The notes below the pieces were generated by a model. It was not told the origin of the DNA. It worked only from the letters and a program-made list of their open reading frames with translations, and made no database searches. Shown in pieces: positions 8,737-61,234 of a stretch of DNA of 64,000 nucleotides (the stretch's first letter is position 1; every line of letters begins with the position of its first letter). The DNA lies in the NCBI GenBank assembly GCA_024103135.1, contig JAGFIZ010000066.1, positions 12,568 to 76,567 of the forward strand. The letters run 5' to 3'. Made by a program: the position numbers and the translations under genes. This DNA comes from Bradyrhizobiaceae bacterium. Its GTDB lineage: Bacteria; Bacteroidota; Ignavibacteria; Kapaibacteriales; Kapaibacteriaceae.

Positions 8737-8793
8737 AGGGGTAGTGATTGATGGACTAATACAACAGTAGAATGCAAAGTTAGCGGAACTTGG

Positions 8794-14693: not shown

Positions 14694-16058
14694 CTATCGA
14701 GCAACGACAACCGACACCGTTCGGAACCGAGCATCGCTTCCCCATACCAGCAGGTAGGAGCCACTTGCAAGTGATGGAGTCGACAAGGCCATCGTCGGCG
14801 CCGTTATAGACCCGCTTGCTACGAGGTTCGCCGCGGCGTCGTAGAGCTGCCAGGTCTTGTCAGTAGGAGCTGGAGCCATGTCGGTTACCACGATGTTGGA
14901 TCCATTGTACTGCGTAAACAACTTTGCTGCCTTACTGCGAGCATCTTCATTCACGTCCGTCGATTCGTCAAGCACGTACAAGCCGACCAGCGTAGCCATG
15001 TATTCGGTGTTGGTTGTTGGATCGCGGTAGAACGACCAGATACTACGGGCTGATTGTCCCAACTCATTCCGTTTCCAGGTAATCCCCTTGTAGCGTTCCC
15101 AGGTTTGTCCACCATCGCGGGAACGATAGACCAAGCTATCGCCTTTAACGATGGTATCGGCTTCCGTTACTCTAAAGCCCCCTAACAAAACATCATCGCT
15201 ACCATCCTTTGTTGGTAGCACATCTACTGCCCAGAACGAGGTATCTGGGAAGCCGATGCGATTCCATGTGCGACCGCGGTCGGTGGACTTTAGAATGCCA
15301 CCATTGCCGGCGATGTTCTCTTCGAGAGCAATTGATACAACAGCATAGCCCACATCGGGATTGTTGGGAGAGAAGACGATCTTTGGAATCTCTGAATCGT
15401 CGCGAATCGTATCCCTTCCATTTACGGAACAGAGCGACCATGAATGTCCGCCATCTTCGCTGCGATAGATCTTTCCACGGGAGGCCCCAAGGAAGAGCAG
15501 ATTTGCATCAACGTTATGGGCAGCGATGGTGTGGAGTTTAGGGGTCTCTGAGAACGGTATTACGGAAATCGAATCCCACGTTTCACCCTTGTCTGTTGAC
15601 CGATAAACAGCTGAGATTCCACGTCCCCTTGCTGCGTAGATCGTACCATCGACCGCTTGCGTAATGGCTTCAGAGACAAACCATGCCTGCCGACCGCTTA
15701 GGTCCTGGAACACGGTGTTAAAGGTCGCACCGCCATCTGTTGACCGCTTGATCCCTGGAAACACATAGCCGCCGACAATAATCGTTGCGGTGTCCTCTGG
15801 ACATATGTGAATCGAGGTGATGAAGTTTGTAACGGACAGTGAACCAACTTCCATGGTTTCCCACGTTGCACCACGATCATTACTAACAAGGATCTGATTA
15901 GCCCAGTTGCCGATGTAAATGCGATCGGGGTTCTTTGGATTCGTTCGCACCGTGTAGGCCTGCTTTGGAAGAAGCAAGCGCCAAGTTCCGATATCAGATG
16001 CCAGTGCAAGACTCGTTGTTGCGCACAGTATCAAGATGATGATTAGGCGATTTTTCAT
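14694..16058 (-). CDS. secreted BNR/Asp-box repeat protein (sialidase/Ycf48-like beta-propeller) with T9SS C-terminal sorting domain
   Basis: Signal peptide. Six SxDxGxTW repeats (SNDRGATWET, STDGGATFNT, STDKGETWDS, SEDGGHSWSL, STDRGRTWNR, SRDGGQTWER). C-terminal ...GSYLLVWGSDARFRTVSVVVAR resembles a T9SS CTD. Confidence 0.7.
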   Translation of the reverse strand: MKNRLIIILILCATTSLALASDIGTWRLLLPKQAYTVRTNPKNPDRIYIGNWANQILVSNDRGATWETMEVGSLSVTNFITSIHICPEDTATIIVGGYVFPGIKRSTDGGATFNTVFQDLSGRQAWFVSEAITQAVDGTIYAARGRGISAVYRSTDKGETWDSISVIPFSETPKLHTIAAHNVDANLLFLGASRGKIYRSEDGGHSWSLCSVNGRDTIRDDSEIPKIVFSPNNPDVGYAVVSIALEENIAGNGGILKSTDRGRTWNRIGFPDTSFWAVDVLPTKDGSDDVLLGGFRVTEADTIVKGDSLVYRSRDGGQTWERYKGITWKRNELGQSARSIWSFYRDPTTNTEYMATLVGLYVLDESTDVNEDARSKAAKLFTQYNGSNIVVTDMAPAPTDKTWQLYDAAANLVASGSITAPTMALSTPSLASGSYLLVWGSDARFRTVSVVVAR

Positions 16059-16079
16059 GGTGTTCTCGGTGGAAGAAAG

Positions 16080-31784: not shown

Positions 31785-32674
31785 TGAAGAAGAGAGTCGT
31801 TTCTCTAACGCCTGTGCCGCTTCCAACAACGTCGGTGAACATGGCTCGAAGAGCCATGTCGGCAGATGACTTTGCACGATTCCAAGCCGTACGACTGTTT
31901 GCTCTGACGTATTTATCAGATGGTCTGAAGATCTGTGGATGGCTCACGGTGCCAGGACACGACGCACCAAGCTATCCTGCAATCATCTTTAATCGTGGTG
32001 GCACTGGTGAGCGTGGTGCTCTAACGGATATCGGAGCAATGGCATTCATTGGTGCGTATGCTGCATGGGGCTACGTTGGTATCGCCTCGAACTACCGTGG
32101 TATCGGCGGAAGCGAGGGCACCGAAGAGTGGGGCGATAACGATGTTACCGACGCGATGGGTCTGCTCGACGTCCTCCAAGAGCTCGGCTATGCCGATATG
32201 CAACGTCTGGGCTTGGTAGGGGGCTCACGAGGCGGAATGATGGCGTTGATGATGCTGCGACAGTCATCAGCATTCAGAGCAGCAGTAACCTTTGGCGCTC
32301 CTACCATGATTCATACGGAATCGGTGAAGACGTACATCAGGGCAACCATGGGCAAGCTGCTTCCAGCTGGTAGCGATGAGCAGACCGAGGCAGAACGCAG
32401 GAGCGCTGTTCTATGGGCCGATGAGTTGTGTAAGACAACACCACTCTTGATTCAACATGGTACCGGCGATAGGCGCGTACCGCCGACTCATGCATTGGCT
32501 CTGGCCTCTGAATTACAACGGATCCATCATCCGTACAAGCTGGTGATGTATGATAATGCCGATCATGTGTTGGCGGGCCGACGTGACGTGAGCACGGCTG
32601 ACGTGCGCTGGTGGCTCGATCACTATGTCCTTAAGTCTTCTCCTCTTCCTACAACGGGTCCTCATGGCGCATAG
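31781..32674 (+). CDS. alpha/beta-hydrolase, S9 prolyl-oligopeptidase/dienelactone-hydrolase-like
   Basis: Nucleophile elbow GGSRGG (GxSxG) and C-terminal DxxxH (NADHV). Its start overlaps the upstream stop (ATGA). Confidence 0.75.
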   Translation: MMKKRVVSLTPVPLPTTSVNMARRAMSADDFARFQAVRLFALTYLSDGLKICGWLTVPGHDAPSYPAIIFNRGGTGERGALTDIGAMAFIGAYAAWGYVGIASNYRGIGGSEGTEEWGDNDVTDAMGLLDVLQELGYADMQRLGLVGGSRGGMMALMMLRQSSAFRAAVTFGAPTMIHTESVKTYIRATMGKLLPAGSDEQTEAERRSAVLWADELCKTTPLLIQHGTGDRRVPPTHALALASELQRIHHPYKLVMYDNADHVLAGRRDVSTADVRWWLDHYVLKSSPLPTTGPHGA

Positions 32675-34712
32675 ATCTTGGTTCATTGCTTCGTTACCTT
32701 CACTATTGCTTTACATGCTGCTGTGCTATGCACAGCATGATTTGCAAGCCCAGTTCGTTGAGAAGATTATCCTCGATGATGGATTGCGAGATGCAATGTC
32801 CACCAAGCACTCCTGTATGGTGCAGGCGGGAGAATTCCCATTGCATGTAATTGACTCGCTTATCGACGTGCGTGAGTATGAGCTGTGGTTTGATTGGTAT
32901 GACTTGTTGGTGGATCCAACGTATGCCGGACAAGGCCGACAGTATGATGGACACGTCAAGATTGTCCTGGTTGTAGCCGAGGCGACCGATACCGTACGCC
33001 TGAATTCACGGTCAATGGTCATAGACTCAGTCCACATTAACGGTGCACCGACAACGTTCAAGGTTTCGACCACGTCCACCATAATCACACGTGCGCCTGG
33101 TTTCGCCCCCTCCCAAACGTACGTGGTGGATGTGTGGTATGCACCGGTACAGCGGAGGAGAGGACTCTATGCTTACAGTGCATCGGAGATTGACTCACTT
33201 GGTTCGATACCAACGAATCTGGTGTACACGTTTTCTGAACCCAACGATGCTGCTTTCTGGTTCCCATGTCACAACATGCCACATGACAAGGCACTGTTCA
33301 CCCTGCATGCACGGGTGCCTGACGGTTATACGGTAGTCAGCAACGGTGTGCAGACCGACAGCATCGTCGATGGTGATTCGGCAACCTGGCAGAGTTGGCA
33401 TTGTCCTGTCGAAATGCCGACCTACTTGTTTGTGGCTAATGCATCAAAGTTTTCGCGACTTGATCAAACGGCGACGTCTGTTGACGGAAGAACGATACCC
33501 ATTAGCAACTACTATTGGGCAGTGGACCACGATACTTCTCGATACTTCAGTGCTGTTAGAGCATTTAAGAATCTTCCACGCATGGTGTCGGCGTTAGAAC
33601 AGTACTTCGGACCATATCCATTCGACACCTATGGTCATACGGTGGTCTGGCCTATTGGCGTTGGCGGGATGGAGCATCAGACGATGACTACCGTATCGCG
33701 TCGGTGGCTCGTTGGTGATCTTGACTTTGCCTTCGCCCATGAACTCGGACATCAGTGGTCCGGTGATCAGGTTACGTGCGGCACATGGTCCGACATCTGG
33801 CTCAACGAGGGTGGTGCCTCGTGGTCAGAAGCCTTATGGTTGAAGGAGGTCGGTGGCGACAGTGAGTACCAGAGGCAGATGATGGGCAGGGCAGAGAAGT
33901 ACTTCCACACAGCACGTCTGGAACCACCAGTTTACGACCTGCCTTTAGTGAGCTTGTTCAACGAAGCGCTAACGTACTGCAAGTCGGCCTGGATTTACCA
34001 CATGATGTATTCAATGTGTGGCGATGATTTTCTTCGTGCGCTGCATTCGTGGTATTCGTCAGCTCCAACATCGAAGCAGACTGCGGAGTTTGTGGCATTC
34101 ATCAAACAGGAAGTGCCGAACACCCCTGTGGCATGGGACACGTTCTTTGACCAGTGGTTGCTTCAGACCTATCATCCAAAACTTGCTGCCGTGTTCGTTG
34201 TAAACACCAACCCTCATGACGGCAAGTATGTCGTCAATGTTGATCTACAGCAAGTTCAGCACCTTGAGGGTATAACGACGGTGTTTGAGTTTCCGCTCGA
34301 TATTAGAGTAGCAACTGGTACCACGGTGTATGATACGACCATCATCGTACGATCAAACGATGTGAAGACGCGTCTGTCGGTGCCGTTCATGCCGACGGAG
34401 TTTGACCTTGATCCGGATCACAAGGTGTTGATGCAGGACACCATCTCCATTGTTACGTCAGTCGATACCGATGTCATCCAGCCATCCATCCTTGGAGCAA
34501 ACAGTGGGATCGTGGGCAACCCTATTCACACACGTTTGCCAGAAGGTGCACGACTCCGAGTGTACTCGGTGACGGGTCAGCAACTATTTGCAAAGCAATC
34601 ATCATCAGAGCAATGTCTGATTCCTACCGAAGGGTGGGCACCAGGCGTAGTACTCCTGGTCTTCGAATCCGAAACCGGCAATGTCTCGATTCCATTTATC
34701 CTTACGCAGTAG
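32664..34712 (+). CDS. M1-family zinc aminopeptidase with T9SS C-terminal domain
   Basis: HELGHQW followed by E 18 residues later (LNEGGASW), i.e. HEXXH-X18-E. Signal peptide. C-terminal RLRVYSVTGQQL...GVVLLVFESETGNVSIPFILTQ CTD-like. Confidence 0.8.
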   Translation: MAHRSWFIASLPSLLLYMLLCYAQHDLQAQFVEKIILDDGLRDAMSTKHSCMVQAGEFPLHVIDSLIDVREYELWFDWYDLLVDPTYAGQGRQYDGHVKIVLVVAEATDTVRLNSRSMVIDSVHINGAPTTFKVSTTSTIITRAPGFAPSQTYVVDVWYAPVQRRRGLYAYSASEIDSLGSIPTNLVYTFSEPNDAAFWFPCHNMPHDKALFTLHARVPDGYTVVSNGVQTDSIVDGDSATWQSWHCPVEMPTYLFVANASKFSRLDQTATSVDGRTIPISNYYWAVDHDTSRYFSAVRAFKNLPRMVSALEQYFGPYPFDTYGHTVVWPIGVGGMEHQTMTTVSRRWLVGDLDFAFAHELGHQWSGDQVTCGTWSDIWLNEGGASWSEALWLKEVGGDSEYQRQMMGRAEKYFHTARLEPPVYDLPLVSLFNEALTYCKSAWIYHMMYSMCGDDFLRALHSWYSSAPTSKQTAEFVAFIKQEVPNTPVAWDTFFDQWLLQTYHPKLAAVFVVNTNPHDGKYVVNVDLQQVQHLEGITTVFEFPLDIRVATGTTVYDTTIIVRSNDVKTRLSVPFMPTEFDLDPDHKVLMQDTISIVTSVDTDVIQPSILGANSGIVGNPIHTRLPEGARLRVYSVTGQQLFAKQSSSEQCLIPTEGWAPGVVLLVFESETGNVSIPFILTQ

Positions 34713-39689: not shown

Positions 39690-40280
39690 CTATCGAAGTG
39701 CGTAGACGATACCGGCTTGAACACCAAACATGCTGATCTGATCGAACGTATAGGTGCGGAACCACCTTCCAGAAACATCGGCGTCCATAACCTCGGAGAT
39801 CGGTACGAGGATCCCAGCCGTGACGCCAACACTCAGACTTACCTCATTCAACCCATCAATCTTGATCGGCTGGTTGGCCACGACCTCATCGGCAAAGATC
39901 AACCCCATCCCGGCATCTACGCTCACGTATGGTTCGATGGAATTCGATCGAAGGCGATACATCGTTGTTGCGTAAATGCCAACGTGTGTGAGGCCGTAGT
40001 CTGAATAGTCATAGGCCGCCGTTTTTCCGAGCGTCATCCTTGTCCACGTACCCTTCACACCAACATGCATCTGTGTCCTGACCCGATACAGATAACCCAA
40101 CGACAGTCCGAGTGAGGCATTGGCACCGGTACTATCGGCTAGCTCACCCTGTGGCCAGGCATAGCTGAGAGCGCCTGCAAAAAAATGGTGTGGCGTGGCA
40201 GCACGGGCGGTCTCTTGACCAACGCACCATGTACACAGCAGAACGGTAAGTATTGCCAGGGTTGAACGCATCATACCCAA
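39690..40280 (-). CDS. outer-membrane beta-barrel protein (OmpW/OmpA-like porin family), hypothetical
   Basis: Signal peptide. Alternating hydrophobic beta-strand pattern with aromatic girdle residues. Confidence 0.45.
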   Translation of the reverse strand: MGMMRSTLAILTVLLCTWCVGQETARAATPHHFFAGALSYAWPQGELADSTGANASLGLSLGYLYRVRTQMHVGVKGTWTRMTLGKTAAYDYSDYGLTHVGIYATTMYRLRSNSIEPYVSVDAGMGLIFADEVVANQPIKIDGLNEVSLSVGVTAGILVPISEVMDADVSGRWFRTYTFDQISMFGVQAGIVYALR

Positions 40281-40344
40281 ACATACAGAATTGGTTTCAT
40301 CGTATGTTTGCTTGGTTTACAACGACATTGCGAATCGGAGTATC

Positions 40345-42120
40345 ATGCCCCTGATTTACATCGACGGCAAACAGTATGAGGCCCAGGCCGGGCAATCAAT
40401 CATCGAAGCTGCAATGCAGCACGGTATTGTCATACCGCACTTCTGCTGGCATCCAGCGCTTTCTGTAGCGGGGAACTGTCGGATGTGCCTTGTAAACGTA
40501 GGCACGCATAAGAAGGATCAAGACGGCAATCTTCTATATGACGAAGGTGGTGCACCACAGGTAAACTGGATCCCGAAGATGCAGATTGCCTGTGCAACGC
40601 CTGTGGCAGAAGGAATGGTTGTTGATCTAGCCAGCAACAAGACGGAAGATGTGCAGAATGCCGTGATGGAGTTCTTGCTGATCAACCACCCGCTGGACTG
40701 TCCGATTTGTGACGAGGCGGGTCAGTGCAAGCTTCAAGAGTATGCCTTCACCCACAGCACCGGTAAGAGTCGATTCGACGAAGAAAAAACACACAAGCCA
40801 AAGCGTGTGGAGTTTGGTCCAAACGTCATGTTTGACGGCGATCGTTGCATTGCCTGTTCACGCTGCATTCGGTTTGCTAGTGAGGTCGCCAAACAACCAG
40901 CTCTCACGTTTGTCCAGCGTGGTGATCGGGTGACGATTCAGACGTTCCCCGGAACGAAATTCGACAATCCATACTCGATGAATGTGATTGACATTTGTCC
41001 GGTTGGTGCCTTGACGAGCATTGATTTCCGCTTCAGAGCTCGCGTATGGGAAATGAGCTTCACGGATAGCGTTTGCCCAGGCTGCGCTCGTGGTTGCAAC
41101 ATCAAGGTAGGCGTCATGAACAACCAGGTTCTACGCCTTGAACCACGCACCAATCCACACGTCAACGGCTACTGGATGTGCGACCCAGGAAGACTCACGA
41201 CGCCAGGCATCGTCAACAATGCCCGTGTTATGGAGCCCCTTATCCGCCGAAACGGCATGCTGGAAACGGCAACATGGGACGAAGCAACGACGGCCGCCGC
41301 AGAGTTGCTGCGTGGCGTGCAGCCAAGCAAGATCATGGTGCTTGGTAGTGCCTTGGCAACGAACGAGGACAACTATGCCTTGGCGCGGTTTGCTCACGAG
41401 GTGCTGAAGACGCAGAATGTCGACATGATCAAGCATATCGATCAAACGTTTGCCGACGATATGCTTCGTGTGAGCGAGACGGCACCAAATGCCATCGGTG
41501 CACACAGCGTGGGCATTGCTCCAGGGAATGGTGGACATACCGTGGATGCGCTCACCGATCGTATTGCACGTGGTGATGTAAAGGCCGTCATCGTGATGGC
41601 CGATTCAGCCGAGAATCACAGCGAAGCCCTTGCCGCCGCCCTCGCTGGCGTCGACACCGTGATCGCCATCACGCCTCACATGTCCGTTACTGCTCAGTCA
41701 GCTGCCGTGGTACTACCAATGTCGACCTTTGCAGAAACCGAAGGCACATTCACCAACCTCACCCATCGTGTACAGCACTTTAAGCCAGCCGTTGCTACCG
41801 TTGAAACGGCACGGTACATGGGCATGAAGATGAGTCGTTGGGACAAGTATGGCTCCCATAACGACCGTTGGAACAAGGGCGAGAGAAGAAATTGCAGGTC
41901 AGGATGGCACATCATCCAGGATCTTGCAACGGCCTTGGGTGCCTCGTGGGGCTTTGGCTCAAGCAAGGAGGTGTTTGACCACCTTGCACAACACGTTGCT
42001 CCGTTCAAAGGACTCAGCTATGAGGGAATGGATAAGGGGCTAGGTCAGACGCTTGGTAGCAATGGTCACGGTGACGAAACGCCGGTGATCTATGAGAGTT
42101 TTACAATGAAACCGCAGTAG
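40345..42120 (+). CDS. nuoG: NADH-quinone oxidoreductase subunit G (short form, about 591 aa)
   Basis: N-terminal 2Fe-2S ferredoxin fold (CRMCLV), HPLDCPICDEAGQC, and CIACSRCIRF 4Fe-4S motifs, then a molybdopterin-oxidoreductase-like domain. The start is trimmed to MPLIYIDGK. Confidence 0.85.
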   Translation: MPLIYIDGKQYEAQAGQSIIEAAMQHGIVIPHFCWHPALSVAGNCRMCLVNVGTHKKDQDGNLLYDEGGAPQVNWIPKMQIACATPVAEGMVVDLASNKTEDVQNAVMEFLLINHPLDCPICDEAGQCKLQEYAFTHSTGKSRFDEEKTHKPKRVEFGPNVMFDGDRCIACSRCIRFASEVAKQPALTFVQRGDRVTIQTFPGTKFDNPYSMNVIDICPVGALTSIDFRFRARVWEMSFTDSVCPGCARGCNIKVGVMNNQVLRLEPRTNPHVNGYWMCDPGRLTTPGIVNNARVMEPLIRRNGMLETATWDEATTAAAELLRGVQPSKIMVLGSALATNEDNYALARFAHEVLKTQNVDMIKHIDQTFADDMLRVSETAPNAIGAHSVGIAPGNGGHTVDALTDRIARGDVKAVIVMADSAENHSEALAAALAGVDTVIAITPHMSVTAQSAAVVLPMSTFAETEGTFTNLTHRVQHFKPAVATVETARYMGMKMSRWDKYGSHNDRWNKGERRNCRSGWHIIQDLATALGASWGFGSSKEVFDHLAQHVAPFKGLSYEGMDKGLGQTLGSNGHGDETPVIYESFTMKPQ

Positions 42121-42132
42121 GGAATACAACGC

Positions 42133-43182
42133 ATGGACTGGATACAACTCGCCATCATTCTCATACAGGCAGGCATCCTGGTAAACATGATGCTCATTGG
42201 TGCTGCATACATGGTTCTTGCCGAACGGAAAATCGCTGCTTGGATTCAGAACCGAATCGGACCCAATAGGGTGGGCCCATGGGGGATGCTGCAATCATTT
42301 GCCGATGTGTTCAAGCTCTACCTCAAGGAGGACATCGTCCCCCTTGCAGCATCAAGACAGTTTCATGCCCTTGCTCCTGTGATTGCGATTGGCGTAGCCA
42401 TTACGGTGTATGCCATTATTCCATGGAGCGGACCCTTCGTTACCATTGATGGTGTGAAGTATGGTCTTGCCATGGCACCGGACATGAACGTGGCACTCTT
42501 GATCGTGCTGGCCATGACGTCGGTAGGCGTCTATGGCGTTGCTCTTGCAGGCTGGTCTTCAAATAGCAAGTATTCATTGCTTGGCGGACTCCGTTCGGCG
42601 GCCCAGATGATTTCCTATGAGTTGGCAATGGGTCTGTCGGTAGTAGCAGTAGTTCTGGTTAGCGGGTCGCTGAGTCTTGTTGGAATCATTGATGCGCAGA
42701 TTGCCAATGGTTGGAACGTCTTCTATCAACCACTCGGCATCATCATCTTCTTGATCTCTGCCTTTGCGGAAACCAACCGGGCACCGTTCGACCTGCCTGA
42801 GGCAGAACCAGAACTTGTTGGTGGTTACCATACCGAGTACAGCGGCATGAAGTTCGGCCTACTCTACCTAGCGGAGTATGCCAACATTCTTGCTTCCAGT
42901 GCCATCATTGCAACGATCTATTTGGGCGGCTGGGACATCCTGCCGTTTGTTGACGAAGCAAGCTTGTTAGGACTTGATCCTACGTCGGTTCCAATGGTTC
43001 TGATCGGACACGTTGTCTTCTTGTCGAAAGCACTGTTGTTCGTATTCATCTTCATGTGGGTGCGTTGGACGCTTCCACGTTTCAGGTACGACCAACTCAT
43101 GAATCTTGGCTGGAAGATCCTCCTACCACTGGCCTTGGCTAACATTGCCATTACAGGAATTGTGTTGCTACTCATCGGATAA
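42133..43182 (+). CDS. nuoH: NADH-quinone oxidoreductase subunit H
   Basis: LAERKIAAWIQNRIGPNRVGPWGMLQSFADVFKL is the NuoH/ND1 signature. 8 TM. Confidence 0.9.
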   Translation: MDWIQLAIILIQAGILVNMMLIGAAYMVLAERKIAAWIQNRIGPNRVGPWGMLQSFADVFKLYLKEDIVPLAASRQFHALAPVIAIGVAITVYAIIPWSGPFVTIDGVKYGLAMAPDMNVALLIVLAMTSVGVYGVALAGWSSNSKYSLLGGLRSAAQMISYELAMGLSVVAVVLVSGSLSLVGIIDAQIANGWNVFYQPLGIIIFLISAFAETNRAPFDLPEAEPELVGGYHTEYSGMKFGLLYLAEYANILASSAIIATIYLGGWDILPFVDEASLLGLDPTSVPMVLIGHVVFLSKALLFVFIFMWVRWTLPRFRYDQLMNLGWKILLPLALANIAITGIVLLLIG

Positions 43183-43185
43183 ATC

Positions 43186-43686
43186 ATGGCGAACATCAAA
43201 GAGAACATCGAGTCACAACGACTAAACTTCTGGGAAAGAATTTACCTGCCGGAGATTGCCAGGGGGCTTGGACTCTCGCTTAGGCAGATGTTTAGACCAA
43301 AGTTTACACGCCAGTACCCCGAGGAGCGGTGGACGCCTGAAGGATCATACCGTGGCAGACCAGTGTTGGTCTTGGAAGACGATGGCGAACGTTGCGTTGC
43401 CTGTGGCTTGTGCGCACGGGTATGTCCACCACTTGCCATCGAAGTTCGTGCAGCCGAGACCGAACGTGAGAAGGAACGGTATCCCGAAAAGTTCGAAATC
43501 AACATGTTGCGCTGCATCTTCTGCGGCTTCTGCGAAGAAGTCTGTCCAGAAGAAGCCATTGTCATGAGCAAGGACTACGAACTGGTCTTTGGCTCACAGC
43601 CAGAGGGCATCCTTGGTATGGACAAGCTCCTGGTTCCGGTAAGTCAGTTGCAGGAGCGCCTAGAGTTCTTGCGTCAGTGGCGCTAA
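43186..43686 (+). CDS. nuoI: NADH-quinone oxidoreductase subunit I (2x[4Fe-4S])
   Basis: Two CxxCxxCxxxCP motifs ([24 protein letters not shown]). Confidence 0.9.
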
Positions 43687-43739: not shown

Positions 43740-45047
43740 CTAGCTTTGCCCGATTTCGCGTAGCAAGGCCTGACGTTCAATTTCCAGTTGTCGGATCTTC
43801 CGCTCGATCGAGTCCAGCTCTTCGGGCATTGAATCAATTTCAATACGCAGTTTCGATGCGGCCTCGTCAACAAGGTCAATGGCCTTGTCAGGCAGGAACC
43901 GGTCCGTGATGTACCGACTACTCAGTTGCGCTGCGGCAACGATGGCTGCATCGGTAATCCGCACGCCATGATGCACCTCGTAGCGTTCCTTGAGTCCGCG
44001 CAAGATGCTGATGGTATCGTCAATCGTTGGTTCGGCAACAAACACCTTCTGGAACCGGCGCTCCAGTGCGGGGTCCTTTTCGATGTGCTGACGGTACTCG
44101 TCGAGCGTTGTCGCACCAATGGCACGGAGCTCGCCACGGGCTAACGCTGGCTTGAGGATGTTGGCAGCATCCATGGCACCTTGTGTGGCACCGGCACCGA
44201 CCAAGGTATGAAGCTCGTCGATGAACAGGATGAATTCTCCGTTACTGTCGGCAACTTCCTTGATGACTGCCTTGAGGCGCTCTTCGAATTGACCTCGGTA
44301 TTGCGTCCCGGCAATCAGTGCTCCCATGTCAAGGGCAAACACCGTCTTTGTCCGCAATGACTCAGGTACATCTTGCGACACAATGCGCTGGGCAATGCCT
44401 TCTACGATTGCCGTCTTTCCGACGCCGGGCTCTCCGATGAGTACGGGGTTGTTCTTGGTTCGGCGTGAAAGCACCTGAAGCACCCGCCTGATCTCGTCCT
44501 CCCTGCCAATTACCGGATCGATCTTTCCCTTCGTGGCTTCTGCATTCAGATTGCGTGCATACTTCTGGAGCGACTGGTAGGCATCTTCGGGGTTTTGACT
44601 GGTGACCCGTTGATTCCCTCTAATCTCCGCAAGAACCTTGAGGATGTTGTCCTTGGTTATTCCCTGGTCCTTAAGCAACGTCCCAGCGGACGATCGGTGT
44701 TCTGCCAGTGCGATGAGCAGGTGTTCGGTTGATACGAACTCATCCTTCAACTGCGATGCCTCCTTGAGGGCCAGTTGCAAGATGGCCTGTACGTCGGACC
44801 CCACGTGTGTACCAGCTACGCCAGCAACGGTAGGCATCTTTTCGATGCCTTCCTGGATCTTCTGACGCAGGTAGTTCATGTTCGCCCCAAGCTTGTTCAA
44901 GATTGGTGGAACAATGCCCGAGGCATCCTGCATGGTTGCCGAAAGCAGGTGGATGGGTTCGAGCGTCTGGTGGTTGGATTCGGTAGCAAGGTGTTGTGCC
45001 TGCTGTAGAGCTTCTTGTGCTTTTAGAGTGAGCTTGTTGATGTTCAT
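43740..45047 (-). pseudogene. clpB: clpB-like gene encoding only the N-domain, AAA module 1 and the start of the coiled-coil M-domain (435 codons). The 3' half is absent.
   Basis: Clp N repeats. Walker A GEPGVGKT. Walker [10 protein letters not shown]. The M-domain begins [30 protein letters not shown], then an in-frame TAG. Only about 50 bp separate this stop from the nuoI 3' end, and no NBD2-coding sequence follows in any frame. Confidence 0.55.
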
Positions 45048-45091: not shown

Positions 45092-45865
45092 TTATGGCTG
45101 TCCTACCAGGGTGCGGACGACCTCTTGGTACTGTGTCGGCTCGATATTCAAGGCGCCCTCCGCAGGGTGGTCGAAAGAGTAAATCAGAATCAGGATCGAC
45201 GCGATCGTGGCTGCAACGGATGCGAACAACACTGCATGGACGGCTAGACTCAGTGGATCAAAGGCAACGAGGAAGAGGATCATGAAGAGACCGCCAGAAA
45301 CTAGGATGACCCACATCATCGTGTTGATCTTCTCTCTCATCAGACCAAGCCGTTCCATACGTGCCTGCTGTAACACGTCGAACTTGTCAACCAACAACTG
45401 CTCTACCACTGAAACTGATGAGTCGCGCTGCACCAGAACCGTCAATGTTCTCCACATACTGTCGAGACTCGACTCCGAGTGCATCAGCGTCCGCGCATCA
45501 TCGTCCCATTCCTTCGAAACCACATGCTCCGCATAGGTCCTCACCGAATGCTTGATCGCTGATGCTTCACTGCTGGAAAACATCGTGGTGATCCGTGCGA
45601 TAGCCAGAAGAGCCGAAGCCTCCTTCTCGATTGCATGGTTAAGGTCAACATGTCGTTCAAGACCATTTACCGTAACCAGTCCTAGGACGATACCATACAG
45701 CACACCTGTATTCAGGTAAGCCGTGGATGACACCTCATGGGCCTTCCTAAGAGTTTCCTTCGACAAGGTGCGGCTAAGCCAGGAGCGGCAAAGGAGTCCT
45801 GCACCTGCCGAAAGCGCGGCAGTCACCAGAACAACTAGCCACCAGGGTAACAGTGAAAATATCAT
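45092..45865 (-). CDS. hypothetical integral membrane protein (DUF4239-like)
   Basis: N-terminal and C-terminal TM helices with a central soluble region. No catalytic motif. Confidence 0.4.
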
Positions 45866-46121
45866 GAACTTCTACCTCTAATTGATGAGACTTCAACGAA
45901 GCTTCGAGATAGGGGAATGGTAGAACCAACAATGATGGATAGGCCTACCAGTACAGGAGTATGGTCGGGTGACTCCGACGGTATTGCACTACTGATTTGC
46001 CGACGTATTGCTGTGGTCAGAGTCAATCCTACAAGTCAACACGAGTCAACAAGATGTCAACACGATAAAGATGCAGAAGAAAAGTCTCACATCAATTTGT
46101 CAGAGCGGATATTTTCGCGGG

Positions 46122-46571
46122 ATGACCTTTACGCCAAAGCACGACCGTTTCAGGGAAGTGATCCTCAAGCACCTGGAACGTCAGGAATTCATGAAGCACA
46201 TCGGTTGTACGCTCACGACGATCGAACCGGGCTATGTAGAAGCAGTCATCGACTTACAGCAACACCACCAACAACAGATAGGCCTTGTTCACGGTGGAGT
46301 CACCGCCACCATTGCCGATGTAGCTGCCGGCTTTGCCGGCTTCACGCTAGTAGGCGAGCATGAGCACACCGTAACGGCAGAGATCAAGGTCAGCTACCTC
46401 GCGAAAGCCGTTGGTAGCCGACTCCGTGCCGTAGGACGTGTGGTTAAGGCCGGACGCATGATGCACTTTTGTGAAGCCGACGTGTATTGTGAGGTGGAAG
46501 GGGGCTCTGAAGTACTCGTTGCCCGCGCAACCACGACCATGGCCGTAATCACGCCGTCCAAAGCCCCCTAA
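46122..46571 (+). CDS. PaaI-family hotdog-fold acyl-CoA thioesterase
   Basis: About 149 aa. GLVHGGVTATIADVAAG is the PaaI/YbgC hotdog motif. Confidence 0.7.
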   Translation: MTFTPKHDRFREVILKHLERQEFMKHIGCTLTTIEPGYVEAVIDLQQHHQQQIGLVHGGVTATIADVAAGFAGFTLVGEHEHTVTAEIKVSYLAKAVGSRLRAVGRVVKAGRMMHFCEADVYCEVEGGSEVLVARATTTMAVITPSKAP

Positions 46572-46743
46572 CATTCTTTGCTTGAACCTGCCAATGCCTC
46601 TCGGCATTGCTTGAAGCTAACGAGCACGTGCTACCAACCATTAGCTAGCATCATCAGGTACCGATCACCATACTGATCATCTGTTCACAATCACCAGCGG
46701 GGTAGCTCCGTCATGGTGAACTGTTTCATTACTAAAGAACACT

Positions 46744-48312
46744 ATGCCGCGAATACTCTGGGTCGACGACGAGATTGAGCTCCTCAAACCACACCTGATT
46801 CTTCTTGAGCAGCGTGGCTACGAGGTGCAGACAGCCACGAACGGTGAAGATGCAATCGAGCTGGCGCAGGAGACGCGGTATGATCTTGTGTTCCTGGACG
46901 AGATGATGATGGGCATCAGCGGGTTGGAAACACTCTCTGTCCTTAAGGACATTGATGCGTCCGTGCCAGTAGTCATGGTGACCAAGAACGAGCAGGAATC
47001 GCTCATGGAAGAAGCCATCGGCAGGAAGATCGACGACTACCTTACCAAGCCAGTGAACCCGACGCAAGTTCTTGCTGCCTGCAAGAAGTTCCTCGAAACA
47101 CGGCGCATTACCGAGTCCAAGATCACGCAGGACTTTCACCAACAGTACAGCGTCATCTCACGTCGGCTCCTTGACAAAATGGATTGGGCAGAGTGGTTGG
47201 ACGTGTACTTGAAGTTGGTTGGTGGAAGCATCGAGCTGGATTCGCATCCCGACATGGGACTTGAGCAATCCCTACGTGATCAGTGGAAGGAATGCAATGC
47301 AGAGTTCTGCAAGTTCATCGAGTCGGAATATCAAGGTTGGCTCGCCGACAGACGTCAGCGCGAGCCCGACATGCCTCTGCTTTCACCACACGTACTCGAT
47401 CAATGGCTTGTGCCGCACCTTTCAAATGGAAAGCCTACGTTCTTCATCGTCGTAGACTGCATGCGAATGGATCAGTGGATGGTCATGGAAGAATACATCC
47501 GCCCATTGTTCAACATTCAGCGTGACTATTACTGCGGCATCCTTCCAACGGCTACGCCATACGCACGCAATGCCATCTTTGCCGGCTTGTACCCAACGGA
47601 AATCAACAAGCACTATCCTCAGTATGCTATTGACGAACGGGGCAACGACGAGCATACGTTGAATCGGCATGAGAAGGATCTTCTTGCCCTGTTCCTGCAG
47701 AGGAAGCGGATCACACTCAAGAACGACTTGCAGTACATCAAGATCATCGACACGGAGTTCGGGAAGCGGATTGAAGCCGACATCCTTCGGTATGCTCGAC
47801 ATCACCTCACGGCCATTGTCATCAATGCCGTGGATATGATTGCTCACTCACGCTCCGACTATCCAATCCTGAAGGAGATTGCACCCGACGAGAGTGCCTA
47901 CCGTACGCTTACCCGTAGCTGGTTCCTGCATAGCTCGTTCTATGGCATTTTGCGGACCCTTGCCACCGTGCCAGACGTGCAGATCGTGATCACTACCGAC
48001 CACGGTAGCGTGCGCTGTCTACGTGGCAGCAAGGTCATCGGCGACCGTGAGACCACCACCAACCTTCGGTACAAGATTGGTCGGAACATCAAGGCTGATG
48101 AGCGCGAGGCACTCCTCGTAAAGAACTCCGAAACCTATCGAATTCCCGCACCCGGTGTGGCTACCACGTGTGTGATCGCAAAGGAAGATCGGTACTTTGT
48201 CTATCCCACCGACTACCACCACTACCTACAGAAGTATCGCGATTCATTCCAGCACGGAGGGATTTCACTGGAAGAAATGATCTTGCCGGTGATTACACTA
48301 AAGCCAAGATAG
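46744..48312 (+). CDS. porX: PorX-type response regulator: CheY-like receiver fused to a PglZ (alkaline-phosphatase superfamily) domain
   Basis: REC domain with acidic pocket and phospho-acceptor context (ILWVDDE...DLVFLDEMMMG...VVMVTK). C-terminal PglZ-type TDHGSV and phosphatase-fold motifs. 522 aa, matching PorX size. Confidence 0.75.
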   Translation: MPRILWVDDEIELLKPHLILLEQRGYEVQTATNGEDAIELAQETRYDLVFLDEMMMGISGLETLSVLKDIDASVPVVMVTKNEQESLMEEAIGRKIDDYLTKPVNPTQVLAACKKFLETRRITESKITQDFHQQYSVISRRLLDKMDWAEWLDVYLKLVGGSIELDSHPDMGLEQSLRDQWKECNAEFCKFIESEYQGWLADRRQREPDMPLLSPHVLDQWLVPHLSNGKPTFFIVVDCMRMDQWMVMEEYIRPLFNIQRDYYCGILPTATPYARNAIFAGLYPTEINKHYPQYAIDERGNDEHTLNRHEKDLLALFLQRKRITLKNDLQYIKIIDTEFGKRIEADILRYARHHLTAIVINAVDMIAHSRSDYPILKEIAPDESAYRTLTRSWFLHSSFYGILRTLATVPDVQIVITTDHGSVRCLRGSKVIGDRETTTNLRYKIGRNIKADEREALLVKNSETYRIPAPGVATTCVIAKEDRYFVYPTDYHHYLQKYRDSFQHGGISLEEMILPVITLKPR

Positions 48313-48411
48313 ACAAGGATGTTAGGCTTGCCACCGTTTCCAATGATGTAGGAACTTTTGCCTCAATGCCGTATGGTTGTGCCGGTATTTTTCATGACCA
48401 ACGGCTGAAAG

Positions 48412-48888
48412 ATGAACGAAGAAGTTGTGCGTACCAATTCGCGCGATGAAACCATCCTACAAGGGGAGCAGTTTGCTGCCCGCCTGCTGAAGGGAGACCT
48501 GGTAGTCCTCTCCGGTGATCTCGGTGCAGGCAAGACTGAATTTGTAAAAGGCATCTGTCATTTTCTTGCTGTAGAAGACCTCGTAACCAGTCCAACCTTT
48601 ACCATCATCAACCAATACAACGGCGAGATGCCGAGTGGTGATGCAGTAAAGGTCTATCATGTTGACCTCTACCGGATCGAGAAACCAGAGGAATTGCTGA
48701 CCATTGGTTTCGACGACATGGTCTTTGCCCATGATGCCATCAAGCTCGTCGAATGGCCAGAGCAGGCGCAGCATCACCTTCCCGATACATACTGGCGTGT
48801 GCAAATCCAACAGGTTGATACTGATGATTCAGCACGTGATATTCACATCAGCAAGCATTCTACCATAGAAGCCAATCAACAACCGTAA
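48412..48888 (+). CDS. tsaE: tRNA threonylcarbamoyladenosine biosynthesis ATPase TsaE
   Basis: LSGDLGAGKTEFVKG Walker A and SPTFTIINQY are typical of YjeE/TsaE. Confidence 0.85.
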   Translation: MNEEVVRTNSRDETILQGEQFAARLLKGDLVVLSGDLGAGKTEFVKGICHFLAVEDLVTSPTFTIINQYNGEMPSGDAVKVYHVDLYRIEKPEELLTIGFDDMVFAHDAIKLVEWPEQAQHHLPDTYWRVQIQQVDTDDSARDIHISKHSTIEANQQP

Positions 48889-48930
48889 GTTTGCATTCCC
48901 ATCCTTTATTCACATAATTCATAGATCCCT

Positions 48931-50106
48931 ATGCAGATCGCGAATCGCATTTCGCGTCTCGGAACAGAGACGGCATTTGTAGTTCTTCAGCGCGCTCGTG
49001 CCCTTGAAGCACAAGGCAAGAGCATTATACACCTGGAGATCGGTGAACCAGATTTCGATACACCGCAAAACATTATCGATGCTGGCAAGCAAGCGCTCGA
49101 CAAGGGATTTACCCATTACGGTCCATCGGCTGGTCTGCCCGAAGCTCGGGCTGCCATTGCAGAGTACACGAATAAAACCCGTGGCTACAACCTTTGGGAT
49201 GCAGACCACGTGGTGATTACTCCTGGGGCCAAGCCAATCATGTTCTTCGGCATGATGGCCGTGTTGAATGAAGGCGACGAAGTCATCTACCCAAACCCAG
49301 GATTCCCGATTTACGAGTCCGTCATCAACTTCCTTGGTGCCAAGGCCGTGCCATTGCCTCTGCGCGAAGAGAACGAATTCCGCATGGATGTTGCCGACTT
49401 GGAAGCACGCATTACGTCGCGCACCAAGATGCTCATCATCAACACACCACAGAATCCTACCGGTGGTATCCTTACCAGGGAAGACCTGCAGCAGATTGCC
49501 GAGCTTGCCATCAAGCATGATCTGATGGTGTTGAGCGATGAGATCTATTCACAGATTACCTATGGTGACTTCAAGCATACGTCGATAACGGAGTTCGACG
49601 GAATGGCAGAGCGCACCATGATCCTGGATGGCTTCTCGAAGACCTTTGCAATGACTGGCTGGCGCCTCGGCTATGGCCTCTTCCCTAAGGATGTTGCCGC
49701 CGTAGTCTCCAAGCTTCAAACCAACAGCACAAGCTGTACTGCAAGCTTCACACAGATTGCTGGTATCGAAGCATTGAGCGATCGTACGTTGGACAGAGTA
49801 GACTACTTCGTTGACAAGTTCAAGGAGCGCCGTGACCTTATCGTTGAGCGCCTAAACCAGATTCCTGGCGTTCGCTGTCACCGTCCACACGGCGCATTCT
49901 ACGTATTCCCGAACATTCAAGGTACTGGAAAGACCAGTGCCGAAATGGAACACTACCTGCTCAACGATGCTGGTGTTGCCTGCTTGTCGGGAACGGCCTT
50001 CGGTGCCTTTGGTGAAGGATTCATTCGACTCTCCTATGCTAACAGCGTAGAGAATATCGAAGAAGCCATGAAGCGGATGCAGACGGCCATCGAAAGACTG
50101 ATGTAA
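48931..50106 (+). CDS. class I/II pyridoxal-phosphate aminotransferase (aspartate aminotransferase-like)
   Basis: SKTFAMTGWRLGY contains the PLP-lysine motif. 391 aa. Confidence 0.85.
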   Translation: MQIANRISRLGTETAFVVLQRARALEAQGKSIIHLEIGEPDFDTPQNIIDAGKQALDKGFTHYGPSAGLPEARAAIAEYTNKTRGYNLWDADHVVITPGAKPIMFFGMMAVLNEGDEVIYPNPGFPIYESVINFLGAKAVPLPLREENEFRMDVADLEARITSRTKMLIINTPQNPTGGILTREDLQQIAELAIKHDLMVLSDEIYSQITYGDFKHTSITEFDGMAERTMILDGFSKTFAMTGWRLGYGLFPKDVAAVVSKLQTNSTSCTASFTQIAGIEALSDRTLDRVDYFVDKFKERRDLIVERLNQIPGVRCHRPHGAFYVFPNIQGTGKTSAEMEHYLLNDAGVACLSGTAFGAFGEGFIRLSYANSVENIEEAMKRMQTAIERLM

Positions 50107-53168: not shown

Positions 53169-53684
53169 TTACGGGTAGAAACGTAATCCTACAGCTGCAT
53201 CAAAGCCAGCCCCAAAGCCGGGCATGATACCGATGTTCTCACCGATTTCGGCAAAGATCTCCAACGGTGAGTTCTTTGGGATGATGTTAAGTCCAGCCAC
53301 AACCCGTACGCCAAGCCCCATCTCATTGTCGCGATAGTACCAGTCATCATCCTTGCTCTTTCGCCAGAGGCTCGACGGACCATCAAAGCCAAGGCTTACG
53401 CCAGGTCCTGCATAGAGCTTGAGGATGGGCGACGAGAACGTATCAAAATGCCACAGGTAGTCAACCTGGATTCGTGGTGAACCAAAGTACGATGCCCCAA
53501 GGTCGAAGACCAGAGAATTTTCCTTATTAAGCCACAGCTTGGCCGTAAGACCTGACGGTTCGCCCAACATCAAACCAAAACCGAAACTCTTGGATTTTGG
53601 ACCTTGAGCGTGAGCAGGAACCGATGTGAACACTATGGTTCCCAGAATCAGAATCGGTATAAACCATCGAACGAAACGTAGCAT
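53169..53684 (-). CDS. hypothetical outer-membrane beta-barrel/secreted protein
   Basis: Signal peptide (VPAHAQG). Amphipathic beta-strand pattern. C-terminal aromatic. Confidence 0.4.
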   Translation of the reverse strand: MLRFVRWFIPILILGTIVFTSVPAHAQGPKSKSFGFGLMLGEPSGLTAKLWLNKENSLVFDLGASYFGSPRIQVDYLWHFDTFSSPILKLYAGPGVSLGFDGPSSLWRKSKDDDWYYRDNEMGLGVRVVAGLNIIPKNSPLEIFAEIGENIGIMPGFGAGFDAAVGLRFYP

Positions 53685-55114: not shown

Positions 55115-55363
55115 GCGTACTCGACGCTAGTTGAAAAAATAGAGGGAGTCCAGCGTATGGTAGATACCGCACAATAAGGAATGCGGAAACGTTAGGTAAA
55201 GGGCTTACCAGTAAGTGGACTACGCGAAAATGTGACGGAAACAATCAACGTGCAAATTCTTTTGTGTTGCTCACTCGCTGCGGAGGTGTCACAAAAGGTC
55301 GGTACATGCCCACCTAGGTGTGTGATGGCGAGTAGAATTTTCCATACAAGCACAGTCGCCTTA

Positions 55364-55399
55364 ACAAACACAGTGACAAACACAGTGGCAAACACAGTG
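55364..55399. repeat. three tandem 12-bp repeats (ACAAACACAGTG x3) immediately upstream of the 55409 start codon
   Basis: ACAAACACAGTG / ACAAACACAGTG / GCAAACACAGTG read directly. Sits in the divergent rho / secreted-protein promoter region. Confidence 0.5.
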
Positions 55400-55408
55400 G
55401 CATTCATC

Positions 55409-55873
55409 ATGGTATTCATCGTACTGGCAAGCGCACCAGCGATGGCACAAGGCCGACATCTTGTGGTCAGCGCTGCGGCAGGGGGCTATGTATCTGTAGG
55501 TGATCTGGCTGGACACGTCGGACTGCGTCCGCCTAGCCTTAAGCCCGTTGCTGGCAGACCTCACCAAGGCGTGACTAGTCCTAGGGTCGACAACGTCGTT
55601 GTTAACCGCGGTACCGCCTGGTTCATTCCGAACATGTACCTTGGTACGTACCGACGGCGCGGTGGGACAGGTGATTCAACGGTACTGACCCTCCGCGCGT
55701 CGATTCAGAGTCTTACGGGCCAGCAAGTCAAGTCCGCTGTTGAACTGGAGGTGGGAGAGTCTGGGGTGACGTTAACACTAGGGGCTGTTCTTGCCAACGG
55801 ATTGTATGTAGTGTTGTTCAACGACTCGCAAGGATTGCATCATGCCGTTACGGTGCTGCAGCAGGATGGTTGA
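55409..55873 (+). CDS. small secreted hypothetical protein, C-terminus weakly T9SS-CTD-like
   Basis: Signal peptide MVFIVLASAPAMAQG. C-terminal GVTLTLGAVLANGLYVVLFNDSQGLHHAVTVLQQDG. The track ORF from 55232 uses a GTG and would translate the repeat as TNTV repeats. Confidence 0.35.
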   Translation: MVFIVLASAPAMAQGRHLVVSAAAGGYVSVGDLAGHVGLRPPSLKPVAGRPHQGVTSPRVDNVVVNRGTAWFIPNMYLGTYRRRGGTGDSTVLTLRASIQSLTGQQVKSAVELEVGESGVTLTLGAVLANGLYVVLFNDSQGLHHAVTVLQQDG

Positions 55874-55988
55874 CGTGTTGGGGGGACGTGGACTTGACGA
55901 CGGATAGCGTAATTCATGTGACGTGTCTGGACGACAAACACTGGTTTATACGGGCTTCCCTGGGCCAGAATACCCGTATTTTTGTCAG

Positions 55989-57056
55989 ATGAAACACGTT
56001 CTTCTTATCGGTCTACTCGGTGCAGTAACCGTCAGTGCACAACCACGATTTGAGCAACCACGTGTGGCAACTCCACGCGGACACAATCGCATTTCGGCGA
56101 GTTCGATGGAAGACGCAATGGTTGCACCGGAAAAGATCTTTCGATTGGATCTGTCCGGACAAACAACTGGGATCCCGTCCAACCTGGCTGACCTTGTGAA
56201 TTTGAGAGAGTTGCGGTTAGCCTCGTGCAACCTGTCGAATCTTCCCTCGGCCTTAGCCGCATGTAAGAACCTGGAAGTCCTTGATCTTTCCAACAATGGC
56301 TTTACCAGCATCCCCGCGGTGTTAGCCGAGTTGCCCAACCTGCGGGTACTGGATGTTTCTAACAATCCATTGACGAATCTTGAACCCCTTGCCAACTGCC
56401 AGGGTTTGCAAACGCTGCATATCAAGAACTGTGGTTTGCAGTCAATCCCAAGTTCCGTGGCCTCCAACCCATCAATTCAAGAGATACATGCCAGTGGCAA
56501 CAAGCTCACGAGTTTGCCATCAAGTCTGCAACAGTGCAAGTCACTGCGTGGTTTGATGCTACAGTACAATGCCTTTACCACCGTTCCCGAGGTGATCAGT
56601 TCTATTGGATCACTGCGTGATCTGGATCTCTCTGGCAACAAGCTCACCAGCTTACCCAGCACACTGTTAAGTAAGGACGGACTCGTTTCGCTCAATGTGA
56701 ATGGAAACGCGCTGACATCACTTCCCACGTCGATGGCCTGCTCCACACTGCGTTCGTTGGATGCCGACTCGAATGCCATCACGGTCATCCCGAGCAGCAT
56801 AGGTAAGCTTACCTCACTTGAGCGTCTCTCGCTCATCCACAACAAGCTTTCGACGGTCCCCAAGGAGATTGGGCAGTGTAAGCAGCTGGCGTTGTTGAAC
56901 CTTTCTGCTAACGCCATCACCTCCTTACCCGTAGCAGAGTTAGCCTCGTTACCAGCACTCATGTGGCTGCGTATTGCGAACGAACAACCGGCGCTAAACG
57001 CAGATGGGACGCCGCGTTCGACAACACCTGCACCGTCGGGTGCAAAAAAACCGTAA
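55989..57056 (+). CDS. secreted leucine-rich repeat (LRR) protein
   Basis: Signal peptide. About 12 LxxLxLxxNxL repeats (LRELRLASCNLSNLP, LEVLDLSNNGFTSIP, LRVLDVSNNPLTNL, and others). Confidence 0.8.
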   Translation: MKHVLLIGLLGAVTVSAQPRFEQPRVATPRGHNRISASSMEDAMVAPEKIFRLDLSGQTTGIPSNLADLVNLRELRLASCNLSNLPSALAACKNLEVLDLSNNGFTSIPAVLAELPNLRVLDVSNNPLTNLEPLANCQGLQTLHIKNCGLQSIPSSVASNPSIQEIHASGNKLTSLPSSLQQCKSLRGLMLQYNAFTTVPEVISSIGSLRDLDLSGNKLTSLPSTLLSKDGLVSLNVNGNALTSLPTSMACSTLRSLDADSNAITVIPSSIGKLTSLERLSLIHNKLSTVPKEIGQCKQLALLNLSANAITSLPVAELASLPALMWLRIANEQPALNADGTPRSTTPAPSGAKKP

Positions 57057-57071: not shown

Positions 57072-57148
57072 GGCGGGTGTAGCTCAGTTGGTAGAGCCCC
57101 AGATTGTGGCTCTGGTTGTCGCGGGTTCGAGCCCCGTCACTCGCCCCA
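57072..57148 (+). tRNA. tRNA-His (anticodon GTG) with genomically encoded G-1 and CCA
   Basis: G-1 plus acceptor GCGGGTG/CACTCGC (G4-U69 wobble). Anticodon stem CCAGA/TCTGG with loop TTGTGGC. Discriminator C. CCA present. Confidence 0.8.
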
Positions 57149-61177: not shown

Positions 61178-61234
61178 ACCACTTCGGCGCAGACATCGAT
61201 CACCACTCATTGCCCATCATTTAGACCACGCACT

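Follow-up and report, generated by a model that had tools for sequence, protein, structure and literature searches.

The surroundings of a predicted type IX secretion system (T9SS) regulator were analysed in a 64-kb window, that is, the whole stretch of 64,000 nucleotides (nt) taken from contig JAGFIZ010000066.1 and assigned to an uncultured environmental Kapaibacteria-like bacterium. The regulator gene, porX, is preceded on the same strand by a hotdog-fold thioesterase gene and followed by tsaE, also named ubK, which encodes a P-loop ATPase-kinase of the YjeE/YdiB family (Table 1). Both flanking genes had been named in the initial annotation, which was made from the sequence alone, and both were recovered with Pfam and NCBIfam models.

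The same annotation had read the fusion of a receiver (REC) and a PglZ domain of about 520 amino acids (aa) as PorX, and this identification stands. The gene product matched the NCBI equivalog model T9SS_RR_PorX (NF052313) at 675.4 bits, relative to a cutoff of 300, over aa 3-522 and model positions 2-513 of 513, and the search for Response_reg and PglZ that had been proposed as a check found both on the 522-aa open reading frame (ORF; Table 1). Full-length alignments were obtained with the solved PorX structures of Porphyromonas gingivalis (PGN_1019; 7PV7, 7PVA and 7PVK; 464 bits) and Flavobacterium johnsoniae (Fjoh_2906; 8TED and 8P6F; 442 bits). Residues 15-523 of 7PV7 aligned with aa 4-522 with few gaps, the helical linker being covered, and the P. 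gingivalis protein has the same length and three-domain architecture. The nearest homologs, at most 88% identical, come from metagenome-assembled genomes (MAGs) labelled Candidatus Kapaibacterium, Kapaibacteriota or Ignavibacteria, some of these bin labels being evidently wrong; Kapaibacterium is placed by the NCBI taxonomy in Bacteroidota, class Eximiradiia. We conclude that the gene is a PorX ortholog, an orphan two-component response regulator of a Kapaibacteria-like Bacteroidota host; this reading, taken with the mechanism and the tsaE partnership proposed below, has a probability of roughly 0.88.

The residues that define PorX were listed according to PMC9757075 and then mapped onto the window protein, and their conservation was followed in a clade alignment of 121 sequences made up of the window PorX and its 120 nearest homologs. 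In the receiver, the phosphoacceptor Asp52 (nt 46897-46899) is equivalent to P. gingivalis (Pg) D58, and the acidic pair D8/D9, T80 and K102 are all kept. The metal ligands D238, T271, D364, H368, D419, H420 and H504 correspond to Pg D239, T272, D361, H365, D415, H416 and H500, with T271 (nt 47554-47556) as the catalytic Thr, and the phosphate contacts R275 and N361 correspond to Pg R276 and N358. The phosphoacceptor Asp, the Thr nucleophile, all seven metal ligands and the Arg and Asn phosphate contacts are identical to those of P. gingivalis PorX, the active-site residues of F. johnsoniae PorX are the same, and every mapped receiver, metal-ligand and phosphate-contact residue is invariant in 121/121 sequences of the clade alignment. 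Both the receiver and the di-zinc/Thr site are intact. The dimer-interface residue Pg Ser385 is replaced by Thr388, and Pg Ile129 by Thr123. The position of P. gingivalis Tyr79, which is phosphorylated by the kinase UbK1 in that species, is taken by Ser73 (nt 46960-46962) in the window protein and by Ala in F. johnsoniae PorX. Judged from its sequence, the window PorX is an ordinary yet divergent member of its family.

A PglZ domain could alternatively denote a component of a bacteriophage exclusion (BREX)/Pgl phage-defence system and not a secretion regulator. The domain is common to BREX PglZ proteins (e.g. type 3, NF033449), which share the PglZ/alkaline-phosphatase-superfamily fold and the metal-ligand pattern with the window protein, and a weak match was obtained to BREX_PglZ_3 (NF033449, 87.8 bits), while none of the weakly matching PADLOC PglZ models scored above 59 bits. 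The higher of these scores, however, lies far under its own cutoff of 250 and under the 675 bits of the PorX model. BREX PglZ proteins moreover lack a REC domain, whereas the window protein carries one at its N-terminus, has nucleotide-binding residues of the PorX type and aligns over its full length with PorX structures. No BrxA, BrxB, BrxC, PglX, PglW or BrxL domain was detected in the scanned ORFs of the window, which comprised all non-overlapping candidates of at least 150 aa, and the neighbours are housekeeping genes that are kept in relatives. With its best BREX score below cutoff and no brx or pgl genes in the window, a phage-defence role is hardly conceivable and was considered effectively refuted, in agreement with the initial annotation.

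The scanned ORFs of the 64-kb window likewise contained no HisKA, HATPase_c or other histidine-kinase domain. The lack of an adjacent PorY-like kinase had been pointed out as a peculiarity of the locus; the absence is confirmed by the domain scans but it is not peculiar, as porX (PGN_1019) and porY (PGN_2001) of P. gingivalis are also 'orphan' genes at separate loci (PMC4800418; PMC10951265). Because the two genes are encoded separately there too, a kinase-free porX locus is normal. T9SS components, PorY and SigP were further sought with NCBIfam and Pfam models in the ORFs at 39690-40280, 53169-53684, 55232-55873, 62156-62758 and 23375-23878, and no match was obtained.

Downstream of porX, the TsaE protein holds all four motifs of UbK as defined in PMC13241743 (Walker A, SPT/S, HxDxYR and EW), these being GDLGAGKT at residue 35, SPT at 60, HVDLYR at 83 and EW at 114. 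As porX and tsaE are co-directional and their 99-nt spacer holds no terminator, we infer that they are most likely co-transcribed; a terminator scan of 45800-49100 returned 0 sites. A promoter scan found none in the spacers, an absence that is uninformative given that the consensus used, that of sigma-70, is unsuited to Bacteroidota. Upstream, the true start of the thioesterase probably lies 3' of the TTG, since its domain begins near aa 60.

The initial annotation had treated tsaE as an incidental flank. Comparison of porX loci led to a different view, with tsaE as the one conserved partner of porX, directly downstream in 126 of the 155 evaluable loci and with constant order and strand. The gap between the genes in relatives had a median of 54 nt and was 100 nt or less in 117/131. 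Of a set of 80 genome loci of Kapaibacteria/Ignavibacteria type, whose PorX proteins are 62-88% identical to that of the window, 79 were evaluable, and in about 74 of these porX was followed directly by tsaE. The pair was present in 2/3 named Bacteroidales, with gaps of 12 nt in P. gingivalis and 10 nt in Parabacteroides, and missing from one contig. Metagenome loci, which carry no taxonomy, were retrieved with a three-clade consensus alignment and classed solely by the most similar reference PorX; this sample, with Flavobacterium-like or Porphyromonas-like PorX, had the pair in 50 of its 73 evaluable loci, and the Flavobacteriia-like loci among the metagenomes had tsaE downstream in 39 of 52. 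Start codons of tsaE were inferred from alignments throughout.

Clustering of all ORFs within 3 kb of porX returned TsaE as the sole neighbour family common to the clades (126/163 loci), the next largest clusters comprising 49 loci or fewer and each being restricted to one clade. In Flavobacteriia-like loci the neighbours were an HD hydrolase, LpxD, LpxC-FabZ and alanine dehydrogenase. The flanks of F. johnsoniae porX differ from those of the window, with HD hydrolase, LpxD and LpxC-FabZ genes upstream and alanine dehydrogenase after tsaE. The thioesterase, aminotransferase, AlkD and cation diffusion facilitator (CDF) neighbours were mostly gone once PorX identity fell below ~77%. The thioesterase is a clade-specific neighbour: it lies upstream and co-directional in nearly all of the forty related loci L001-L040 (PorX identity ~77% or more) and is inverted in four loci of greater distance, L062, L064, L076 and L078.

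The arrangement in P. gingivalis, an oral pathogen, resembles that of the window in that porX is an orphan with no kinase adjoining and with tsaE/ubK directly downstream, and differs in its spacer, 12 nt compared to 99 nt. As a separate observation, P. gingivalis and Parabacteroides have a small Imm17-like (PF15562) gene directly after tsaE (5985-6212 in L081 and 5989-6207 in L082, which form the P. gingivalis/Parabacteroides pair), where the window has an aminotransferase.

A link between the two proteins has been described in P. gingivalis, in which UbK1, a TsaE/YjeE/YdiB family protein, is encoded downstream of porX in 81 strains and phosphorylates PorX on Tyr79 of the receiver in vitro (PMC13241743, Journal of Biological Chemistry 2026). 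A full-text literature search returned no paper beyond PMC13241743 that mentions PorX and TsaE together. The gene order reported there, porX then tsaE, is that of the window, but whereas the earlier study covered 81 strains of one species, the pair described here extends to a lineage with ~42% PorX identity and to 126/155 loci phylum-wide. The published link was built on a gene neighbourhood kept within a single species and on a phosphosite that lacks conservation: the authors themselves note that Tyr79 is not widespread (PMC13241743), and at the equivalent position 72 of 74 tsaE-linked PorX proteins of Kapaibacteria type have Ser or Thr and most proteins of the wider sample Asn or Asp. Kinase activity towards PorX, shown for P. 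gingivalis UbK1 only and in vitro, may extend to the window TsaE.

As the porX-tsaE pair is conserved phylum-wide, PorX probably has a conserved functional partner in the TsaE/UbK ATPase-kinase. A tentative extension of this is that porX-tsaE constitutes an ancient two-gene unit, spanning Kapaibacteria to Flavobacteriia and Bacteroidia, in which TsaE, the universal ATPase of the t6A pathway, may throughout the phylum be a direct partner of the T9SS regulator or an input to it. The adjacency might instead be inherited gene order devoid of functional meaning, tsaE being a universal housekeeping gene whose adjacency to porX is lost in ~19% of loci (e.g. L083) and whose known phosphosite in PorX is not conserved. 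However, tsaE is the sole neighbour kept between lineages whose PorX proteins are ~40% identical, all other families being clade-specific; the spacers are short with order and strand unchanged; and UbK1 and PorX of one species have been shown to react directly as kinase and substrate (PMC13241743). Neutral gene order is for these reasons possible but rather unlikely.

The mechanism and structure of PorX have been published (PMC9757075, PMC10951265, PMC11320123, PMC4800418), and a corresponding sequence of events can be proposed for the window protein. A PorY-like histidine kinase encoded elsewhere would phosphorylate Asp52, upon which PorX would form an intertwined dimer, and the dimer would activate the Thr271/di-zinc site on linear and cyclic oligonucleotides. 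The phosphorylated receiver would also have two binding partners, an extracytoplasmic function (ECF) sigma factor and the T9SS motor protein PorL/GldL, the latter contacted at its cytoplasmic tail, and this binding may tune how much of the type IX machine is made or how active it is. Zinc-dependent phosphodiesterase activity, phospho-dependent dimerisation and binding of the PorL/GldL tail and SigP are thus expected on the grounds of residue conservation and of the characterised orthologs.

Several points weigh against this interpretation of the gene and its partner. Identity to the characterised PorX proteins is just 40-42% (40% to F. johnsoniae and 42% to P. gingivalis, those two being 52% identical to each other), and the scans of the 64-kb window brought up no gene for a T9SS core component, for PorY or for SigP, so that cargo domains are the only, indirect, tie of this organism to the T9SS. 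Co-transcription of porX with tsaE is deduced from gene arrangement, the sigma-70 promoter consensus being unfit for Bacteroidota. Ser73 occupies the UbK1 phosphosite in the window protein, a position that is not conserved outside the window clade, and the P. gingivalis Y79A mutant was without effect on gingipain secretion (PMC13241743). The idea that a phosphorylatable Tyr79-equivalent tracks tsaE linkage was rejected, Ser, Thr or Tyr being present, in the wider sample, in 15 of 50 linked as compared to 5 of 23 unlinked proteins; the pairing, if functional, therefore does not depend on the Tyr79 position. Finally, deletion of porX in F. johnsoniae altered secretion only mildly and left gliding unaffected (PMC11320123), and the physiological output of PorX may therefore vary by lineage.

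The mild deletion phenotype would also fit a REC-PglZ regulator of PorX descent that has a mainly T9SS-independent role in the Kapaibacteria-like lineage, such as general oligonucleotide or second-messenger turnover or signalling linked to TsaE and tRNA modification. The P. gingivalis study concluded that PorX has roles beyond T9SS output, the UbK1-PorX link being separable from secretion (PMC13241743), and its only conserved genomic partner is tsaE and not a T9SS gene. Such a shift of function is nevertheless improbable, considering that PorX is reported to be strictly conserved in T9SS-using bacteria (PMC11320123), that its binding to GldL/PorL is conserved between two distant species (PMC10951265) and that the window organism itself encodes T9SS cargo. 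A PorX ortholog serving the T9SS remains the preferred reading of the gene.

The cargo is recognised by T9SS type A C-terminal domains (CTDs), for which the cutoffs were 23 bits for TIGR04183 and a gathering score (GA) of 27 for PF18962. The initial annotation had counted six or more such proteins. Three pass TIGR04183, one of them also exceeding the PF18962 GA, and the count of six was not reached by curated models. Three more are sub-threshold candidates with C-termini that look CTD-like by eye (Table 1), so that the window encodes three, possibly six, CTD proteins. The weaker candidates were scored with a self-built profile, seeded with the three confirmed tails and iterated through every stop-terminated ORF in the window and in 80 related loci; the three confirmed proteins were strongly recovered. 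Among these candidates, the BNR protein at 14694-16058 had no TIGR04183 match at E <=1. A CTD was detected by no model in a second BNR protein at 16080-17429. The two form a tandem BNR/sortilin-Vps10-like pair (14694-17429, minus strand; F510_1955 glycosylhydrolase-like, sub-threshold) that adjoins the CTD protein at 17493-19529. The cargo genes constitute indirect evidence of T9SS use by the window organism; T9SS is reported to be possibly present in Ignavibacteriota and related phyla of the Fibrobacterota-Chlorobiota-Bacteroidota (FCB) group (PMC11285876).

Whether these genes make the window a T9SS regulon island, with porX lying among cargo genes under its control, was evaluated from their density and position. 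Three CTD proteins at curated thresholds and three below them lie within ~40 kb, and the self-built profile returned 31 CTD ORFs from related loci totalling 1.33 Mb, a rate of 1.49 per 64 kb, which puts the window at ~2-2.7 times the local background. This excess falls short of significance (Poisson P = 0.19 for at least three and 0.064 for at least four), in a test that is rough as the background consists of porX-centred loci and the profile was seeded from the window. The distance from porX is 7-30 kb for the candidate cargo genes and 17-29 kb for the three that are confirmed, which are on the opposite strand, with nuo, relA/spoT, ruvA, hisA/F-family, opp permease and tRNA genes in between. 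CTD ORFs do occur within 10 kb of porX in relatives, but their positions are inconsistent and not syntenic, also in close relatives. Furthermore, the experimentally defined PorX/SigP regulon consists of genes for T9SS components (porT, sov, porK-N and porP) and not of cargo genes (PMC4800418), and none of these component genes was found in the window. We therefore reject the 'regulon neighbourhood' that the initial annotation had proposed and regard the cargo genes as no part of a porX-linked unit. A large CTD ORF does stand directly upstream of porX in a distant subclade (L059, L065-L070), which would favour an island, yet in view of the above one at the window locus is very unlikely. A few CTD cargo genes near porX should not be taken as regulation.

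The arrangement in that distant subclade of Kapaibacteria type was noted in its own right. In L059, L065-L067, L069 and L070 an ORF of 680-966 aa with a strong CTD signal lies 166-248 nt upstream of porX, an example being 7722-9764 (plus strand) in L065. Three of these loci (L065, L066 and L069) also belong to the small group with no tsaE downstream, and the downstream genes of L065 are on the opposite strand.

Table 1. Coordinates of porX, its domains and neighbours, and of T9SS cargo genes and candidates in the 64-kb window.
Feature	Position	Strand	Description and support
porX	46744..48312	+	ATG-to-stop ORF, 522 aa; response regulator with REC, three-helix-bundle and PglZ/alkaline-phosphatase-fold domains
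Receiver (CheY-like) domain of PorX, aa 4-112	46753..47079	+	Response_reg PF00072, 85.6 bits; residues mapped to P. gingivalis PorX as well as to 120 homologs
PglZ/alkaline-phosphatase-superfamily core of PorX, aa 232-425	47437..48018	+	PglZ PF08665, 57.5 bits; fold reaches aa 522
porX-tsaE spacer, 99 nt	48313..48411	+	No terminator-like hairpin; RNA structure not unusual (fold z-score 0.32)
tsaE/ubK, YjeE/YdiB family P-loop ATPase-kinase, 158 aa	48412..48888	+	PF02367, 129.5 bits; TIGR00150, 114.2 bits (cutoff 60.1)
Hotdog-fold thioesterase	46008..46571	+	PF03061, TIGR00369; co-directional, upstream of porX
T9SS type A CTD cargo, DUF4397 + Por_Secre_tail, 559 aa	21666..23345	-	PF18962, 43.4 bits (GA 27); TIGR04183, 41.9
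T9SS type A CTD cargo, 678 aa	17493..19529	-	TIGR04183, 24.2; PF18962, 25.0 (<GA 27); self-built profile E = 5.5e-26
T9SS type A CTD cargo, AhpC/redoxin N-terminus and beta-propeller-like middle, 970 aa	27021..29933	-	TIGR04183, 23.5; PF18962, 21.6 (<GA); self-built profile E = 1.9e-19
Candidate small CTD protein, sub-threshold, 213 aa	55232..55873	+	No curated match; self-built profile E = 6e-4; CTD-like tail '...LANGLYVVLFNDSQGLHHAVTVLQ'
M1 aminopeptidase (Peptidase_M1), candidate CTD, sub-threshold	32625..34712	+	TIGR04183, 13.1 bits, E = 0.073; self-built profile E = 1.6e-3
BNR/sortilin-like protein (Sortilin-Vps10/BNR), candidate divergent CTD, sub-threshold	14694..16058	-	Self-built profile E = 0.02; tail '...SGSYLLVWGSDARFRTVSVVVAR'

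Other features of the window were recorded alongside. The 435-aa ORF at 43740-45047 (minus strand) comprises the N-terminal half of ClpB only (Clp_N, first AAA module and lid) and matches TIGR03346 at 681 bits over model positions 1-428 of 853, under the full-length cutoff. Between its end and a convergent nuoI there are 54 nt, which leaves no room for the second half. Many related MAGs have highly similar ORFs of about half length (~1.3-1.5 kb stop to stop) in this position, which makes the ORF look like a half-ClpB that is conserved, not like a pseudogene or an assembly error. Complex I genes are scattered over 9904-10545, 24194-24724 and 40291-43686, that is, nuoB-like, nuoJ and a nuoG-nuoH-nuoI block at three separate places instead of a single operon. 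At 59004-61993 (plus strand) a UbiA-family prenyltransferase is followed by a DprE1-like protein (NF053785, 333 bits, below cutoff) and a DprE2-like short-chain dehydrogenase/reductase (SDR), an order that recalls the decaprenyl-phospho-arabinose pathway of Actinobacteria and is unexpected in a Bacteroidota-type genome. A 377-aa leucine-rich-repeat (LRR) protein with an apparent signal peptide, similar to the LRR domains of type III effectors (XopAC-like, sub-threshold), is encoded at 55923-57056 (plus strand), between the small CTD-like ORF and tRNA-His (57073-57148). Two ORFs of 196 and 171 aa at 39690-40280 and 53169-53684 (both minus strand) have no family match; with signal-peptide-like N-termini and Gly/aromatic-rich C-terminal halves they look like small outer-membrane beta-barrels. 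An Rfam scan of the whole window returned four tRNAs only.

Naming the gene PorX adds little in itself, as the family is characterised structurally and biochemically and the NCBI model would name the gene automatically. The value added beyond the known family is modest and consists of the phylum-wide conservation of the porX-tsaE pair. If the two genes do form an ancient unit, the link between them would predate the single Tyr79 phosphosite of P. gingivalis, which is not conserved, and would be of a more general kind, and it might tie translational or tRNA-modification status, or ATP status, to the control of secretion. The linkage across the phylum argues for a general partnership whose molecular basis may be another site, a complex or co-expression, and it makes porX-tsaE a testable lead both for work on T9SS regulation and for the disputed kinase role of TsaE/UbK.

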